Made by a program: the position numbers and the translations under genes
The notes under the pieces: generated by a model
Database searches by the model: none
What the model saw: only the letters and a program-made list of their open reading frames with translations
What the model was told of the DNA's origin: nothing
IMG/VR virus record: IMGVR_UViG_2737471753_000001
Location: 1-33,365 of that record
Length of the DNA stretch: 33,365 bases
From: a virus
Lineage: Duplodnaviria > Heunggongvirae > Uroviricota > Caudoviricetes
Reading direction: 5' to 3' (one strand)
Shown here: positions 23,811-30,524 of the stretch, piece after piece
Layout: each line of letters begins with the position of its first letter
How positions within the stretch are numbered: the stretch's first letter is position 1

Positions 23811-23840
23811 AAAAAAGGGCTTTATTAGCCCTTAATTTTT
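23811..23840. terminator. bidirectional intrinsic terminator at the 3' end of the cargo operon
   Basis: Stem AAGGGC / GCCCTT with 7-nt loop, flanked by an A6 run and AATTTTT; on the minus strand the hairpin is followed by TTTTTTATT just after the PIN-like gene stop. Confidence 0.7.
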
Positions 23841-24477
23841 ACCTTCCCCAGTCCCGATCAGGAAGTCTATCTTTGAAGGCAAGGTAATCGTAAAACTCAC
23901 GAGTATGGGAAAAAATACATTCGCACATTGCAGCGCCAGCGTTTGAAAGAGCCAATTTCAACATGCCGTCAGGTTTAGGATTGCTCACCAAATTTTCATA
24001 AACTTGAGCCTGATCTAAACCGTGGACACATAACAAAAGCGAAGACTCAAAGGTAACAACCGCATCCAGTAAACGCTGATGAATCACGGAAAGGGTCGGT
24101 TGGTTTGCAACAATTGCAGTCAAACAGCGGCGATCACCAGTCATAAAAATGGCTTCTGGGTTCTCTATGCACGAGGCAAGCAATAGCTGTTCGCCTACAT
24201 CAATTCCGGGCACACTCCCCAAAAGCTCAATAAGCTGGGAGTCCTGAACTTCCGGGATATCCTGTACAGATTCAATGAAGGCTCCCACTTGCTCGTAAAC
24301 AACTTGGCTACCACACTTCCTGATTGCTTTATCAGGATTTTTCGGCAGAAGCTGAAAACGAGCAGCAGGGTTAATGAAGATCTGTTCGGGGGGTTGATTA
24401 AAAACCACTGGCAGTTGTGATAACAGATTGCACTGGGCCAGCTTCAAAATGACATCATTATCAGAAAGAACAATCAC
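23839..24477 (-). CDS. PIN-like (DUF4411-type) putative nuclease, second gene of cargo cassette
   Basis: 212-aa ORF, GTG start with SD GGGGAA, beginning (M)IVLSDNDVILKL (PIN beta1-Asp pattern) with later acidic motifs (...IFMTGDRR...); start 4 nt downstream of the upstream gene's stop; AT-rich relative to phage core. Confidence 0.5.
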   Translation of the reverse strand: MIVLSDNDVILKLAQCNLLSQLPVVFNQPPEQIFINPAARFQLLPKNPDKAIRKCGSQVVYEQVGAFIESVQDIPEVQDSQLIELLGSVPGIDVGEQLLLASCIENPEAIFMTGDRRCLTAIVANQPTLSVIHQRLLDAVVTFESSLLLCVHGLDQAQVYENLVSNPKPDGMLKLALSNAGAAMCECIFSHTREFYDYLAFKDRLPDRDWGR

Positions 24478-24480
24478 TTA

Positions 24481-25479
24481 TTATTCCCCGATTAGATTTT
24501 CTAAAACCTTAAGATCATCTTCGTGGATATTTTCTAAATCCATCCCGCTTTTCATCATGGCCCTCACAAAATCCTGATCTGAGTCTTCACCAGCGCAGAG
24601 TGATTTAACAGCGTTAACAGCAACGCCCCAGCAGTTCTGCGCGAAACCATAATTTAAAGCGATGTGAGTTGGGTCAATGTGATTATCACTTCCAAACTTT
24701 TGAGCTGCGCGAGCCAAGCCTGGCCCGTTCAACCTGCCAGCGGTAGGAACGATACGTAAAGACTTCTGCCCCGAAATGACCTGGAAGGCGAATTCGTTAG
24801 CTTCTTTCTCTACGTTGTCCGTCGAAGCATTCTCAATTTTTGCGTCAATATGGCACTGCCCGTTTTCTGCGTTCAGATGCCCTCTGGCGATATGGCCTAA
24901 CTCATGCGCGAGATCAAACAGCATATAGCCGTATTTCTGAGGCTGAGTAAGAACAATCACCGGGCGCCCGTGACTCATTAGCGCCAGTCCGGCCATTTTT
25001 TTTGCAGCTTGTGGGAAGCATTTTAGATAAACAACAGGAATGCCAATCGAATGACAGTATGTTACCAGGCTATCTAGCGACACCCATGATTCCTTAGTAA
25101 GGATCTGGGTTCTTATCGCCAAAGGATCCAGCACTGCACTAGCATCGTAAGGGACTTTGAAATTAGACGCGACAATACCGGCCGCAGTATAGGCAACAGC
25201 AGTAGCGATATCTAAATCGTTCTCGGCTACATTTTGGCGATGTTTATATTTATGGTTTCCACCAAAATTAAAGCATACCCCTTCGCTACCATCTTTCAGG
25301 CTATCCGGGAGAATGCTAAACATACGCGCAAGGTGCAGGCACGCATACTGGCGCCCTGATGGGGTGTCAGCAAGCTTCTCATCCCACCAATCAGGCAACA
25401 ACCTGCGGATGTAAGAGAGATTAAACCCGGCCCGGCCGAATTTAGAATATATCTGACTCATCTGATTATGGTTCGTCAT
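24481..25479 (-). CDS. COG2856 / ImmA-IrrE family zinc metallopeptidase-domain protein, first gene of cargo cassette
   Basis: 332-aa ORF with AGGAGG RBS; central ...GIPVVYLK...PVIVLTQPQKYGYMLFDLAHELGHIARGH...EKEANEFAFQ... (HEXXH plus downstream E-x-EAN-FA signature) and unassigned N- and C-terminal regions. Confidence 0.7.
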   Translation of the reverse strand: MTNHNQMSQIYSKFGRAGFNLSYIRRLLPDWWDEKLADTPSGRQYACLHLARMFSILPDSLKDGSEGVCFNFGGNHKYKHRQNVAENDLDIATAVAYTAAGIVASNFKVPYDASAVLDPLAIRTQILTKESWVSLDSLVTYCHSIGIPVVYLKCFPQAAKKMAGLALMSHGRPVIVLTQPQKYGYMLFDLAHELGHIARGHLNAENGQCHIDAKIENASTDNVEKEANEFAFQVISGQKSLRIVPTAGRLNGPGLARAAQKFGSDNHIDPTHIALNYGFAQNCWGVAVNAVKSLCAGEDSDQDFVRAMMKSGMDLENIHEDDLKVLENLIGE

Positions 25480-25637: not shown

Positions 25638-28025
25638 TTAGTTCCGCGAAAATGCCGCTTTCATCCTATTCACAAGATCGCTTGTTTTTTGCTTCGCCGC
25701 CATCACTTGCGACGGCAGCCTCTCCAGCCCCGACGCGGCCCGGTTGCGCGATACCAGCCGCCCGTCCTGCACGGTCATAACAAGATCGCCGCACGCCACT
25801 GACGCACCGGCCATCATCGATCTGACCATTCCGGCGCTGGCATCAATCCCACGTAGCGCCAGCAGTTCACTGATCTGCTGCTCTTTCACGGATAACCCGT
25901 CCCCGTCTTTCCGTTCCGGTGGCCGTTTTTTACGCTTACTGCGCACATCGTCACTAAGCCGCTGCGCCAGTTCTCGCTTTTCCTGCCGGGAAAGCGCATC
26001 AAAATTCACCGTCACGCCCTCAGCTGGTGCAGTCATTTCTGACTGCCCTTTAGCTTCGCTGGCGGCATGTTCAACACCGTCAGCACCTGCCGCGGGATCC
26101 CGCGTACAGTTATTGACAGAACTCCGAGGGGCGGCGCTGCCGCCTGAAAAACCAACGTCAACGGCCACACCGTCAGCGCTCTGGCGCTTCGGCACGATTT
26201 TGTATTGAGTGGTGCGGGTGAAGATCAAAGAGTCATTGCCCGTGATCGGGCAGTAAATACCAGTGATTCGCTGGACGTTATCGCCGTAGGCGTTGCCATT
26301 TTCAGTGATTTCATAGTTCAGACGGATGCGCAGTTTATCGCGCTCAACCAACGGGCCACCCTGGGCTAATACGTAGTTATCCCATTCACCACCGTTAGCA
26401 GCCTGCCGGGCGGTTTCCAGTTCAGGGTGTAACACCAGTTCGCGATCGCCCAAGCGGCGAAGTTCGCGATATACCGTGACCGGCGCACCGCCGATCTGCT
26501 GAAACTGGCGAATAGCCCAGCGCGATGCCCACGCGCTAACACGGAGTGACATTTCTTTCAGGTCTTCCCCGGTTTCGTCGTCCTTCTCACCATCCAGCGC
26601 GAAGCCGTCGATATTCTTCGAAATGTATTTCGCTATGTAGCCGGTTGCGCTGCCGTGGGCATCGTCGATCGGCACAACCTGAAAGCGGTTTTCCTGCGCT
26701 CCCGGTTCGTTGCCGTCTTCTTTCAGGGCATATTTACGGAAGATTTCGCGCGCCTGCTCGACGCATTCCGGGCGCATAAAAAGAAGTAAATGCCAGTGTG
26801 GCGTTGCATCGTGGTGCGGTTCGACCACGCGGAAACCAAAGACGCGGATCCCTTTTCTCTTCCACGCTGCGCGGGTTCTCGCCCAGACTTTGCAAAGATA
26901 TTGCTGCGTCTCGCGCGGCGACGCGCCACAGTATTTATTATTGCGGCGCCCGTTATGCTGCATGGAGTGGTAACGGGAAGGTGCTGTCAGCGTGTAGAAG
27001 TCACCGGCCAGCCCTTCCAGCTTCGCCAGATCTTCAAATCCGCGCATTCTCGTCATGAGTTCGCGGCGACGGTTGGCCGGATTGGCAACACTACCGGCGA
27101 CTTTATCGATCAGTGAAATGCGCTCGCCCGTGTCCTGGTCTTCCAGCTCCATAGCCTTAAGGTATTCACGGTTAGCCTTTTTCTGGGCCAGCCATTCCGT
27201 AAGGCACGGGGCGCTACTGTATGGGGAAGATTTTTTCTGGACGTATCCCGCCGCGATCATCAAGTGCTCACGCCATCGGGCATGGATACGGCGCAGGCGG
27301 TTTAACCACCATTGCGGTGACTCAAGACGGAGAACCGCGCGTAACGCGTCCTCCGCTTCAAGTTCTTCATTGCAATACGCTGTCCAACCTGGGATCGGCG
27401 TTTTTAGATGCACCGCCAGCGACGCAATACGGCCATAGCCAGAAAGCGCCGCGAACTCAGGATCGCCGGTGCGCGCCAACTGGTAATCGGACTCGCGTAT
27501 AAACTCGCTCGTAAAGATATCGGCAAGCGTATAAGCCAGTCTTTTTAACTCTTTTTTCCCTGCCCAAAGCATACGGAAAAGCTGATCGCGGATTGGCAGC
27601 AGAATGCCAGGCATCACAGTGTCAGGCTGGTAAACACTGTTCACGCTATCAATACGTGTTAATACGTGGCGCTCAAAGGTATTAACCAGCCAGTGATCTG
27701 CCGCTTTGCGGTCTTTCGCGTCCAGTGCATCCAGCTTCGCGGCAAAGTGGCGGCGGATATACTGCGGAAGGGAAGCCAGACGGCGACGCAGCAGCTTGCT
27801 GCGCTCCGACTTTTCGTCCTCCGCTACCAGTTCACTGAACGCAATATGCTTGCGGGTGCCGTCCGGCGTGAGATAGTCGAAACCATCCAGCCCCGTCGCT
27901 ACATCAACGCCAATCGGCTGGTATGGTTTGTTCCCGCCATAAGCGTAAGGGGTAGCATTATCAGTGCTACCCGAATACGGTGGAGGTGGAGAAGGGGCGC
28001 GACGGCCACGGGTTGCCGTAGTCAT
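25638..28025 (-). CDS. A: rolling-circle replication initiator (gpA family)
   Basis: 795-aa ORF with ...HWHLLLF... and ...GYIAKYISK... motifs typical of P2 A-type nicking initiators; start overlaps the methyltransferase stop. Confidence 0.9.
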   Translation of the reverse strand: MTTATRGRRAPSPPPPYSGSTDNATPYAYGGNKPYQPIGVDVATGLDGFDYLTPDGTRKHIAFSELVAEDEKSERSKLLRRRLASLPQYIRRHFAAKLDALDAKDRKAADHWLVNTFERHVLTRIDSVNSVYQPDTVMPGILLPIRDQLFRMLWAGKKELKRLAYTLADIFTSEFIRESDYQLARTGDPEFAALSGYGRIASLAVHLKTPIPGWTAYCNEELEAEDALRAVLRLESPQWWLNRLRRIHARWREHLMIAAGYVQKKSSPYSSAPCLTEWLAQKKANREYLKAMELEDQDTGERISLIDKVAGSVANPANRRRELMTRMRGFEDLAKLEGLAGDFYTLTAPSRYHSMQHNGRRNNKYCGASPRETQQYLCKVWARTRAAWKRKGIRVFGFRVVEPHHDATPHWHLLLFMRPECVEQAREIFRKYALKEDGNEPGAQENRFQVVPIDDAHGSATGYIAKYISKNIDGFALDGEKDDETGEDLKEMSLRVSAWASRWAIRQFQQIGGAPVTVYRELRRLGDRELVLHPELETARQAANGGEWDNYVLAQGGPLVERDKLRIRLNYEITENGNAYGDNVQRITGIYCPITGNDSLIFTRTTQYKIVPKRQSADGVAVDVGFSGGSAAPRSSVNNCTRDPAAGADGVEHAASEAKGQSEMTAPAEGVTVNFDALSRQEKRELAQRLSDDVRSKRKKRPPERKDGDGLSVKEQQISELLALRGIDASAGMVRSMMAGASVACGDLVMTVQDGRLVSRNRAASGLERLPSQVMAAKQKTSDLVNRMKAAFSRN

Positions 28026-28936
28026 TGCGCGATCTCCATGTAGGCTTTTAAGAAAGTAGCGGCTGCATAGATATTTACGGCGTTTCCGCTGGCGCGTAGT
28101 TTTCCCACTCTGGAGGGAACCCCATCAACCAGAGGCTTAAGGCCGGGTTTAACTGGCCTCCACTTTCCATCTCTGCAAAAGAGCCAGTCAGCAGATCCCC
28201 AGAATCCGTTAACCGGGCCGGGCCTGCTATCTGCGCTGTCACATCCAGCGTATCCGTTGACAGCTTCCCGTGCCGCATCCTTCCCCCCTGATACCCGCCC
28301 TTTCCATCCCTCGCCGTAGGGGTGGGCCAGCCCGCAAGACAAGCAAAGTCCTGTAAGTTCGACTGCCGACCAGCCAGCTTCTTGGCGATCACCTTCTCGG
28401 CATCCTGATAAGCGTTCTTCGTATTGCTCGCGGTTGGAGTCGGCCAGCCAGTAAGTACGCTCCCGGATGTGCGGCGCACCGACGCCCGCAGACGGAAACG
28501 CCGACGCCCCGAAGGCATAGCCCAAACTTTCCATGTCTGTTTGTACAAGGTCGATCCAGACTTCTGCATCTTTGCTTGAAGACTGTTCGCCAAATATAAC
28601 GACAGGGCGTTGCTGGCCTGCAAGCCAATGAACGGCGGGCCATAGGTGCCGCTCATCATCAAATTGTTTTCCTTCGCCTGCCTGGCTGAAAGGTTGGCAT
28701 GGGCAACTTGCTGTCCATACTGGGCGGTCATCCGGCCATCCTGCAACGCGCAAAGCCCGGGGCCAGCCTCCAAAACCTGCAAACAGGTGGACTTGAGAGA
28801 ATCCTTTAATGTCATTTGGGGTTACATCCTCAACGGAACGAGTATCAACAACGCCGGAAGCGATAAGCCCGGCATCAATGAGGTTGCGCAGGTATTGCGC
28901 GGCGAAGGGGTCGATTTCGTTGTAGTAGGCGGTCAC
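28022..28936 (-). CDS. DNA (cytosine-5) methyltransferase, possibly frame-disrupted
   Basis: 304-aa frame carries C5-MTase motif I (FAGFGGW), motif IV (SCPCQPFSQAG), a motif VIII-like HIRERTYW and a C-terminal GNAV; a +1 frame (track ORF 28075..28815) is open across most of the gene and carries a duplicated GWPTPTA motif. Confidence 0.65.
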   Translation of the reverse strand: MTAYYNEIDPFAAQYLRNLIDAGLIASGVVDTRSVEDVTPNDIKGFSQVHLFAGFGGWPRALRVAGWPDDRPVWTASCPCQPFSQAGEGKQFDDERHLWPAVHWLAGQQRPVVIFGEQSSSKDAEVWIDLVQTDMESLGYAFGASAFPSAGVGAPHIRERTYWLADSNREQYEERLSGCREGDRQEAGWSAVELTGLCLSCGLAHPYGEGWKGRVSGGKDAAREAVNGYAGCDSADSRPGPVNGFWGSADWLFCRDGKWRPVKPGLKPLVDGVPSRVGKLRASGNAVNIYAAATFLKAYMEIAQ

Positions 28937-29253
28937 TGCTGCCCCTCCGCCTTTCGGCTACACCGATCGATTACTTGGTACTGAATTTCTAAACCCAGCT
29001 TTTCAGCAAGCGCGTGCTCTGCCTTAGCTCCCGCAGACTGCTGCCAGCCATCCAGCAAGAAGATCCCGTCAGCACAACGCAACATGGCGAAGCAAATATC
29101 CATGTATTCCGCCTGCTCTAATCCGTCCGGCAAAATCGCCGGATTAAGGGCAACGTTTCCGCGTCGCACTACGTGCCCAGCTGCACGGTTAAAAGCCTGC
29201 CGATTGAATCCAGGCAAACCGCTCATCGGGCCAGCGATATAGATTTTTGCCAT
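28933..29253 (-). CDS. DUF4406-like (nucleoside 2-deoxyribosyltransferase-like fold) protein
   Basis: 106-aa ORF MAKIYIAGPMSGLPGFN...; coupled (overlapping start/stop) to the Dam and C5-MTase genes. Confidence 0.5.
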   Translation of the reverse strand: MAKIYIAGPMSGLPGFNRQAFNRAAGHVVRRGNVALNPAILPDGLEQAEYMDICFAMLRCADGIFLLDGWQQSAGAKAEHALAEKLGLEIQYQVIDRCSRKAEGQQ

Positions 29254-30224
29254 TAAAAAGCCTCCAGATCGCCAAACGTGCCCGCCGCAACCATCGCGTT
29301 GTAAGTCGCATCACCCATCACGGCGCCACAATCAGGGCAACCGCCGCCGTAACGCCCGCAGCAGTCGCAGACAGGCAGCACGCCGATCACTTCTTTGGCC
29401 TTCTGTCGGTTGTTTTTGTCAGTGCTGACGGAACGTTGCACGCTGATTTTGTGCATCTTGAAGGGCTGATAAATCGCGCGGGTGGCTTCGGTGTCGCTGT
29501 TGGAAATGACGACCTTCACGCCATGCTTACGGTTAACTTCCAGCAGTGCCTGGACTAACTGGCGGTGGTTGTCTTCCGTGAATGGTTCGGTGTGGTATTG
29601 GGTAAAATCGGCTGTTTTGCTTTCAGGCAGGTAAGGCGGATCGCAGTAAACGAGAACATCGCCACCCGTGACGACCTGTAGAGAACGCTGGAACGGCGCG
29701 CACAGAAATATTGCCTTTGTATCGTTGGCCTTTTCGGCAAACAGGCGGATTTCATTTTCAGGAAAGTAGACGCTCTTATACTTGCCAAACGGCACGTTAA
29801 AGCCAGTCTTCCGGCTGTATCGGCATAAGCCGTTATAACCGTGGCGATTCAGATACAGGAATTGAGCAGCGCGCATAATGCACGCCATTTCAGCGCCATA
29901 ACGCAACCCACCGCTTTTGACCGTACCCACCTGCTTATTGAACGCGGCGCGGACTTCGTTGTATCCCTGCGGGCTGTTCTTACTGTTGAACAGTTCACGG
30001 GCCGCATCGATCACTAAGTCCGGGTAACGGGTGACTTCCCGATACAGGTTAATAAGATCCGGGTTGATATCAGCCAGCACATAGCGGCGGTATTCAGTCG
30101 CCAGAAATACCGATGCGCCGCCTACGAACGGTTCGATCAGGCAGTCGGCTTTAGGAAGATGCGGCAGCAGGTCAGGGAGGACACGGGTTTTTCCCCCTGC
30201 CCATTTGATGAACGGGCGGATCAT
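29253..30224 (-). CDS. dam: DNA adenine methyltransferase (Dam-like, N6A) with Cys-rich C-terminal extension
   Basis: Start placed at MIRPFIKWAGGK (SD GGAG upstream); DPPY motif (...VYCDPPYLPE...); C-terminal tail ...PVCDCCGRYGGGCPDCG... resembles a zinc ribbon. Confidence 0.8.
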   Translation of the reverse strand: MIRPFIKWAGGKTRVLPDLLPHLPKADCLIEPFVGGASVFLATEYRRYVLADINPDLINLYREVTRYPDLVIDAARELFNSKNSPQGYNEVRAAFNKQVGTVKSGGLRYGAEMACIMRAAQFLYLNRHGYNGLCRYSRKTGFNVPFGKYKSVYFPENEIRLFAEKANDTKAIFLCAPFQRSLQVVTGGDVLVYCDPPYLPESKTADFTQYHTEPFTEDNHRQLVQALLEVNRKHGVKVVISNSDTEATRAIYQPFKMHKISVQRSVSTDKNNRQKAKEVIGVLPVCDCCGRYGGGCPDCGAVMGDATYNAMVAAGTFGDLEAF

Positions 30225-30225
30225 T

Positions 30226-30438
30226 TTACAGGACTCCGTAATGGGAAGCTGGAATAGAAGGGCGCTGCAATTCTTCAATGCAGTGCTGGCGCAGATTGCT
30301 TATAAAATTGGTTGCTACAGACCCACTGGCAGAAAGGGTTAACTCACCATCACGGCGGGTTTTAATGGTTAACCCTTCATTTTCGATAGCAGGTAAAAGA
30401 ACATGCAAAATGAAACTATATTGTTCACGTCTGGTCAT
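30226..30438 (-). CDS. hypothetical protein
   Basis: 70-aa ORF (MTRREQYSFILHVLLPAIENEGL...) with SD GGAGGAAG; ends 2 nt before the Dam start. Confidence 0.45.
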   Translation of the reverse strand: MTRREQYSFILHVLLPAIENEGLTIKTRRDGELTLSASGSVATNFISNLRQHCIEELQRPSIPASHYGVL

Positions 30439-30524
30439 AATCTCTTCCTCCAAAAAAGAATGAGTTGAACCGCCGCCACTTAATAAAGGGGCGGAGAAAA
30501 CAGAGTTGATTTTTTAAAACCGAA

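Follow-up and report, generated by a model that had tools for sequence, protein, structure and literature searches.

In design, the closest described counterpart of the gene discussed here is M.EcoHK31I, a YGGCCR-specific C5-cytosine DNA methyltransferase (Lee, Kam & Shaw 1995; we follow the accounts in PMC2836561 and PMC3404938). Its α chain carries motifs I-VIII and X together with the target-recognition domain (TRD), and its β chain carries motif IX; both chains are required, β is active when a second plasmid supplies it, and it can be initiated at internal Met codons (PMC2836561, PMC3404938). M.AquI is likewise a C5 methylase split in two chains, the smaller of which holds motifs IX and X (PMC3404938). 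Here we describe a C5-methylase gene at positions 28022-28936 (minus strand) of the IMG/VR virus record IMGVR_UViG_2737471753_000001, a 33,365-nucleotide (nt) stretch from a tailed phage of the Caudoviricetes that we refer to as the window. The gene is the last of three that precede replication gene A of a prophage, the other two encoding a Dam-family methylase and a DUF4406 protein, and we consider it likely that the three are independently acquired cargo genes and that the C5 methylase is an α/β enzyme encoded in two frames of the same DNA.

Read in its annotated frame (frame A), the gene encodes a protein of 304 amino acids from a GTG start, which we call α and which matches PF00145 (7.7e-11) and, over its full length, phrog_363 (1.8e-78). 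Wholly inside it, on the same strand and in the +1 frame (frame B), lies a second open reading frame (ORF) at 28075-28815, part of a 248-codon open run, for a β-like chain of 246 amino acids that spans 81% of α and matches phrog_31772 (9.5e-39) and phrog_1008 (2.8e-27), both of them 'DNA methyltransferase' families. A preliminary description of the window, which had recognised the C5 methylase correctly, overlooked this ORF and treated the enzyme as an ordinary single polypeptide, a view from which the evidence now points away. The arrangement recalls λ Rz/Rz1, where one gene of a tailed phage likewise contains the whole of a second, read in the +1 frame of the same strand, and where the products cooperate. 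P2 lysB/lysC is a further same-strand embedded gene pair in a phage. In these pairs, however, the embedded genes are only about 60-100 codons long, while the overlap here covers 246 codons and would encode parts of one enzyme.

The two open frames are a property of the family and not of one gene. Among 119 homologues with 45-100% identity, picked from viral and bacterial collections by frame-A similarity only, the +1 frame is open in 98%, with a mean of 300 codons (89% of α) against 61 codons for the +2 frame. Reciprocally, in 65 unique loci picked by frame-B similarity, α is open over at least 95% of β in every case, with the catalytic PCQ in all of them and a C-terminal GNAx in 98%. Synonymous shuffles that keep α reach the 248-codon run of the window gene in 3 of 20,000 trials and, over 115 family members, give a median p of 0.0066 for the observed +1 openness; in the converse shuffles, with β fixed, α was left stop-free in 0 of 300 trials for each of the 115 genes. 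The overlap grows from the 246 codons of the window to about 390 in relatives, and the insertions that add repeats lengthen both frames together, as in one homologue (L004) with an α of 404 and a β of 345 amino acids.

The two frames are under selection in different places. In 39 disjoint pairs of close homologues (75-97% nt identity), we counted substitutions synonymous in α and nonsynonymous in β against those nonsynonymous in α and synonymous in β. The counts stand at 383:49 over α codons 1-40 and 321:66 over codons 41-80, as for α alone; at 350:247 over codons 81-160, where both frames are constrained; at 494:858 over codons 161-240, where β is dominant; at 160:148 over codons 241-285, again both; and at 179:83 over codons 287-304, α alone. 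Codon-position entropy gives a similar picture, with a wobble position of α that varies freely (1.2-1.5 bits) at codons 1-80 and 281-300 but is suppressed from 81 to 280, and with the middle codons and codons 259-279 most variable at the third position of β. Both frames are maintained by selection: towards either end of the gene only α is under constraint, two blocks are constrained in both, and in the variable middle β is dominant. The region of α predicted to be disordered (residues 170-253) coincides with this β-conserved middle.

Taken by itself, α holds most of a C5 methylase. The hallmarks of the family are all present (the PCQ cysteine loop, the ENV-type Glu, a QxRxR-type motif and the FxGxG that binds S-adenosylmethionine), in the order NEID (II-like), FAGFGG (I), PCQ (IV), GEQ (VI), HIRER (VIII), linker and GNAV (X), and no motif IX-like segment was seen in the chain. 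PF00145 covers residues 74-172 only (profile positions 65-167 of 324), the α profile aligns to residues 4-32 and 73-173 of M.HhaI (6e-16), that is to motif I and motifs IV-VIII only, and the NCBIfam dcm model scores 21, far under its cutoff of 100.65. In an AlphaFold2 model, most of residues 1-168 reach a predicted local distance difference test (pLDDT) score of 84-95, residues 170-253 fall to 22-28 and have no secondary structure, and a helix is formed at residues 276-303; Foldseek searches with this model return only the large domains of C5 methylases (M.HhaI, M.HaeIII, DNMT) at E values of about 1e-6. The N-terminus of the chain is unusual in that a motif II-like segment, YYNEIDPFAAQYLRNL, whose counterpart in M.HhaI we take to be VYSNEWDKYAQEVYEMN, is confidently folded in the model and precedes motif I (residues 52-57), so that, compared with canonical C5 methylases, the catalytic domain seems to carry a local permutation.

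The β chain has no such familiar company. Its window member contains GSTLYKQTWK, LRASVRRTS, two GWPTPTA repeats and GGQLNPALSLWLMGFPPEW, and its family is marked by GSTLYKLTWK, LRASxRRTS, between none and eight GWPTP repeats, and a C-terminal GGQLNPxxSxWLMGxPxEW. A search of a 5.8-billion-protein collection returned 5252 homologues at E<1e-5; the best 120 of these carry no Pfam domain, and the few that are named are called hypothetical or uncharacterised. At 50% identity the family counts 10,718 representatives, aligned in register from the N-terminus. The window β itself found no match in Pfam, NCBIfam or PADLOC. Near its C-terminus, GQLNPALSLWLMGFPPEW aligns without gaps with RKLHPRECARVMGYPDSY of M.HhaI, which we take to be motif IX of that enzyme. 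Since PF00145 recognises neither the β C-terminus as motif IX nor the α C-terminus as motif X, we call the QLNPxxSxWLMGxPxEW segment motif IX-like by pattern resemblance only.

How β would be translated can be approached through the region in front of it. In 109 of 115 family members the earliest ATG of frame B is found within α codons 27-41, and a Shine-Dalgarno (SD) duplex of -5 kcal/mol or stronger is found within the 15 nt upstream in 53% of the genes, compared with 22% of control positions (p=1e-5). A conserved Arg33 of α is coded by the rare AGG in 37% of cases, against 7.6% gene-wide, which makes an AGGAG 8 nt before the ATG. In the window, the candidate ribosome-binding site for frame B is a GAGGA at 28827-28831 (minus strand), 5' of the ATG at 28815; it is overlapped by an in-frame ATG-TAA start-stop of frame B (28822-28827, minus strand), two codons upstream of the β ATG, that might influence β initiation. 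The conserved ATG window and the SD and AGG enrichment favour, but do not prove, independent initiation at an internal ATG over frameshifting.

Frameshifting deserves its own hearing, since a programmed +1 shift, used beside or instead of separate chains, would join the N-terminal part of α, with the catalytic domain, to the C-terminal part of β, with its WPTP and motif IX-like region. Such a fusion would resemble a conventional one-chain methylase, and it is in keeping with an α constrained up to about codon 160 and a β constrained afterwards, with the lack of constraint on the first 40 or so residues of β, and with the slightly higher score of an α-β chimera against PF00145 (46.4 bits, compared with 42.4 for α alone). 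For a fusion, however, frame B need not be open 40-120 codons upstream of the required shift, with an SD-enriched ATG almost always at α codons 27-41, nor need α stay open through an unconstrained linker to the conserved GNAV helix, as it does in all loci. No shift site was noticed, although no search aimed at such sites was made, and the β of M.EcoHK31I is a separate polypeptide that works from its own plasmid. We therefore regard a programmed frameshift as unlikely, and return to two separately initiated chains.

Several observations weigh against that reading. A profile of β against the PDB gave no significant match, only chance ones to the S1P receptor, and an AlphaFold2 model of β alone, built on a shallow alignment of 29 sequences, reached a pLDDT of 34 and was unusable for a fold search. 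An α-β-α chimera scored 46.1 bits against PF00145, where a scrambled control scored 42.0, and the match did not reach into the C-terminal motifs. The GAGGA of the window stands 11 nt from its ATG, a spacing longer than ideal. The TRD of M.EcoHK31I is placed in α by the literature, whereas the variable region of the window family (α codons 161-240) evolves as β-coding sequence and is predicted to be disordered in α. Finally, the composition of α alone gives long +1 runs: in synonymous shuffles that keep α, the longest run averages 44% of the gene length, so the p-values for single genes are modest.

The last point is also the core of a simpler account, in which the gene has a single product, read from frame A. 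The long +1 ORF would then follow from the amino-acid and codon composition of α in DNA rich in GC, and what looks like a frame-B family would be an artefact of gene callers that picked the wrong frame. Besides the long runs under the null, the poor folding of β alone and its lack of Pfam, NCBIfam and PDB matches, this account can point to RefSeq, which annotates α alone in the identical gene of Escherichia coli KA0011. Yet it has to contend with a +1 openness of 89% against the 44% of the null in 119 diverged genes, including those with extra-repeat insertions, and with the excess over codons 161-240 of changes that are silent in β and alter α, which a passenger frame could not produce. The conserved ATG window with its SD and AGG enrichment, the predicted disorder of α exactly where β is conserved, and the experimental precedent of M.EcoHK31I stand against it as well, and we regard it as very improbable.

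We accordingly file the window gene as a putative member of the M.EcoHK31I-type two-polypeptide design, a placement made by analogy and on a comparison of the enzymes by description only. As in M.EcoHK31I, two polypeptides would come from one DNA stretch, with β wholly inside the α gene in another frame; α has motifs I-VIII plus X, with a segment on β that resembles motif IX; and the N-terminal part of β is dispensable or weakly constrained, with several in-frame Met codons that could start it. Unlike M.EcoHK31I, which belongs to a restriction-modification system, the window gene is an orphan, carried within a prophage early operon, and a tblastn search of plasmids for restriction-modification-linked relatives led mostly to settings that were phage-like or otherwise uninformative and in which no restriction gene lay under a match. 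With M.AquI the enzyme would share a second chain carrying part of the variable region and C-terminal motifs, but the small chain of M.AquI is not reported to be embedded in the other gene (PMC3404938), and in the window motif X stays on α, giving the order α-β-α. M.BatI was considered as a related case and rejected as an unrelated Bacillus enzyme, and a literature search on overlapping genes in phage methylases found no account of the two-frame design as a family-wide feature of prophage methylases.

We infer that β is translated, that it assembles with α into a heterodimer and that it has a part in target recognition. By analogy with M.EcoHK31I, α and β would be made by translating one RNA segment in two frames and would associate into the active C5 methylase. 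The structured parts of α would be joined by a linker of about 80 residues, free to vary in sequence and kept stop-free, and β, started from its own internal ATG near α codon 41, would supply the variable WPTP-repeat region and the motif IX-like segment. A stronger version of this, which we offer as a tentative idea short of an expectation, is that the unannotated β, and not α, carries the target-recognition module with its 0-8 WPTP repeats and so sets the specificity of thousands of 'orphan' methylases, in an interleaved enzyme where each frame is structured where the other serves as a spacer. If this were true, few of the same-strand dual-coding regions known from bacteria or phages would be as long or as widespread.

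Two further observations concern pseudogenes of C5 methylases. The annotation 'DNA cytosine methyltransferase (x2)', found in some E. coli genomes, was considered as a record of α and β and rejected, as it denotes a split pseudogene. In a lambdoid prophage of E. coli Ec1117 (locus L328, 2358-4125), this type of C5 methylase, as a split pseudogene, lies beside a frameshifted MT-A70 methylase, and the decay of both methylases in this prophage is consistent with dispensable cargo.

The window gene sits distally in the early (lytic) operon of a P2/186-like prophage, which its relatives place in the family Peduoviridae, and the stretch 28022-28936 is 100% identical to a prophage beside cpxP in E. 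coli KA0011. Domain scans also identified Cox, DUF4761, Fil, integrase, portal and terminase genes around the operon. Between cox/fil and gene A, the ORF list, the junctions and the domain scans bear out the preliminary description of three consecutive minus-strand genes with overlapping start and stop codons: the Dam stop and the DUF4406 start share a TAATG at 29253, the DUF4406 stop and the GTG start of the C5 methylase share a GTGA at 28933-28936, and the C5 stop and the start of gene A share an ATGA at 28022-28025, each with a GGAG(G) 7-8 nt 5' of the next start. The gene that follows through the ATGA is indeed replication gene A, a rolling-circle nickase (25638-28025, minus strand; PF05840 Phage_GPA, 4.3e-105; phrog_91, 1e-261). 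Of the further proposal that the trio sits where P2 has gene B, the early-operon setting stands, but the operon is more 186-like than P2-like in its Cox, DUF4761 and Fil genes, and no gene B homologue was seen. A promoter and terminator scan from cox to gene A gave the same counts as shuffled sequences and speaks neither for nor against a single operon.

The first gene of the trio (29253-30224, minus strand) encodes a Dam-family N6-adenine DNA methyltransferase of 323 amino acids, as had been proposed from its DPPY and N-terminal KWAGGK motifs. It matches PF02086 (9.5e-63) over profile positions 1-252 of 253, TIGR00571 'dam' at 2e-81 (273.6 bits against a cutoff of 114.85) and the orphan methyltransferases of PADLOC at 1.4e-96. 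Its target is presumably GATC, a specificity that can only be inferred given a score under the E. coli Dam equivalog cutoff (280 against 441). While the preliminary description had the gene correctly, it extended it to a TTG at 30278, which is an in-frame upstream extension; translation almost certainly begins at the ATG at 30224 (MIRPFIKWAGGK), 1 nt past the stop of a small upstream ORF (30226-30453, minus strand; 75 amino acids from a TTG at 30453; phrog_21140, 3.4e-41). This small ORF is present in phages SEN5 and phiT5282H and in the KA0011 prophage, and is annotated as 213 nt in the relatives and in KA0011.

At its C-terminus the Dam protein carries a Cys4 tail of the form CxxC-x8-CxxC (VCDCCGRYGGGCPDCG; 29298-29372, minus strand), probably a small zinc ribbon, with short matches to phrog_20376 and to RecE NF007259. 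The tail is conserved in the Dam of SI7 and in the dam gene of phiT5282H, which has 97% nt identity to that of the window and is annotated as intact. RefSeq splits the identical Dam gene of KA0011 at the Cys4 tail into two 'partial' pseudogene fragments; given an intact ORF and a tail that recurs in SI7 and phiT5282H, this looks like a genuine Dam-zinc-ribbon fusion miscalled as a pseudogene.

Between the two methylases lies the gene of the DUF4406 protein (28933-29253, minus strand; 106 amino acids), which matches PF14359 at 3.1e-31, with 108.1 bits against a gathering cutoff of 22, and phrog_355, labelled 'nucleoside 2-deoxyribosyltransferase', at 4.9e-41. The earlier suggestion of a likeness to nucleoside 2-deoxyribosyltransferases (NDTs) is borne out by hidden Markov model comparisons, both in the PF14359 score and in weak matches of the DUF4406 profile to NDT structures (Trypanosoma brucei NDT, 2a0k, E=0.0017; 1t1j, 0.0063). 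An alignment of 24 homologues shows Y5, G8, P9, W70, S73, G75, A76 and E79 to be invariant, in the motifs YxxGP, at the N-terminus, and W..S.GA..E. Of these, E79 lines up with the Glu in NDT's GTAFE motif, which we take to be the catalytic nucleophile there. As in NDT and DNPH1-type N-glycosidases (PF05014 and relatives), an N-terminal (I/V)Y(I/L)AGP accompanies this Glu, but DUF4406 is shorter (106 against about 160 amino acids) and the match is weak (E=0.0017). By its sequence we assign the protein to the NDT superfamily, as a small member with a catalytic-type Glu. Searches of the literature found neither an account of DUF4406 function nor anything specific on anti-defence roles of NDT-like proteins, a PADLOC scan gave no match, and a paper on the NDT of dZ-phages was rejected as a precedent, as it concerns PF05014. 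As a guess, the protein may act on a nucleoside or nucleotide substrate, apart from the methylases.

The preliminary description had gone further and suggested for the three genes a combined function in anti-restriction or DNA modification; in such a module, DUF4406 would modify nucleosides or nucleotides destined for the DNA. The trio is tightly coupled in a single operon and DUF4406 keeps the NDT-type Glu. In two phage backgrounds its gene also stands directly upstream of a C5 methylase of this type: in the P2-like early operon, and in a non-P2 phage type where the pair directly follows the lysis cassette (loci L273, 2504-3815, and L280, 2438-3810). This suggests that the two genes can travel together as a unit, although in most members of the family they are not linked. 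Co-occurrence nevertheless fails the module. Across 160 diverse loci with this type of C5 methylase, DUF4406 is found within 2.5 kb in 8, Dam in 27 and gene A in 34; conversely, the C5 gene adjoins DUF4406 in 15 of 80 DUF4406 loci, and 51 of the 80 have neither Dam nor C5 methylase nor gene A. Close relatives carry different subsets, and any one of the trio may be dropped: SEN5 has Dam-C5-gpA, SI7 Dam-75aa-C5-gpA and phiT5282H Dam-59aa-gpA. No hypermodification genes are present, the papers found on DUF4406 do not deal with its function, and nothing found here ties the protein to DNA modification. There is thus a weak association of DUF4406 with the C5 methylase, yet the trio is not a conserved functional unit, and we think it improbable that it acts as one.

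What does hold of the proposal is that both methyltransferases are orphans, with no restriction gene adjoining either. They resemble the orphan anti-restriction Dam and C5 methylases of other phages in being phage-borne, in lacking a cognate nuclease and in their likely lytic expression. Early lytic expression and a role in anti-restriction or self-modification are a reasonable inference from the biology of P2 and 186. On infection or induction, the early transcript would be read through the coupled genes, Dam would methylate its own sites, presumably GATC, and the two methylases together would probably pre-empt host restriction of the replicating phage DNA.

Apart from the operon, the window holds a gene for an ImmA/IrrE-type metallopeptidase (24481-25479, minus strand; PF06114; phrog_18577 over its full length) between gene A and the portal gene, a stretch that we take to be the position of P2's variable defence-gene hotspot. 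Upstream of it, also between gene A and the portal gene, lies an ORF for a hypothetical protein (about 23840-24477, minus strand), and there are weak PADLOC matches here to PD-Lambda-2_B, CapP and RmrA. It is possible that they form a phage-borne defence or sensor pair.

As orphan methylases are common phage cargo, the module that was first noticed in the window is an ordinary one, and the interest of the locus lies in an overlooked and very widespread, probable two-frame methylase of a known but obscure kind. The consequences begin with annotation, where the β family, with more than 10,000 clusters at 50% identity, has no name and where RefSeq lists α only in an identical E. coli prophage. 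Clones of such methylases that carry α only may be inactive, and assignments of methylomes to genes may be misread. For the study of overlapping genes, the same-strand overlap, 246-390 codons long and conserved in Enterobacterales, Pseudomonas, Burkholderiales and further groups, offers a rare and well-powered natural example of one sequence serving two proteins, whose structured and spacer regions alternate between the frames. And if β holds the specificity determinants, the family would offer enzyme engineering a ready-made collection of split C5 methylases, a type that has already served in targeted methylation with M.EcoHK31I.

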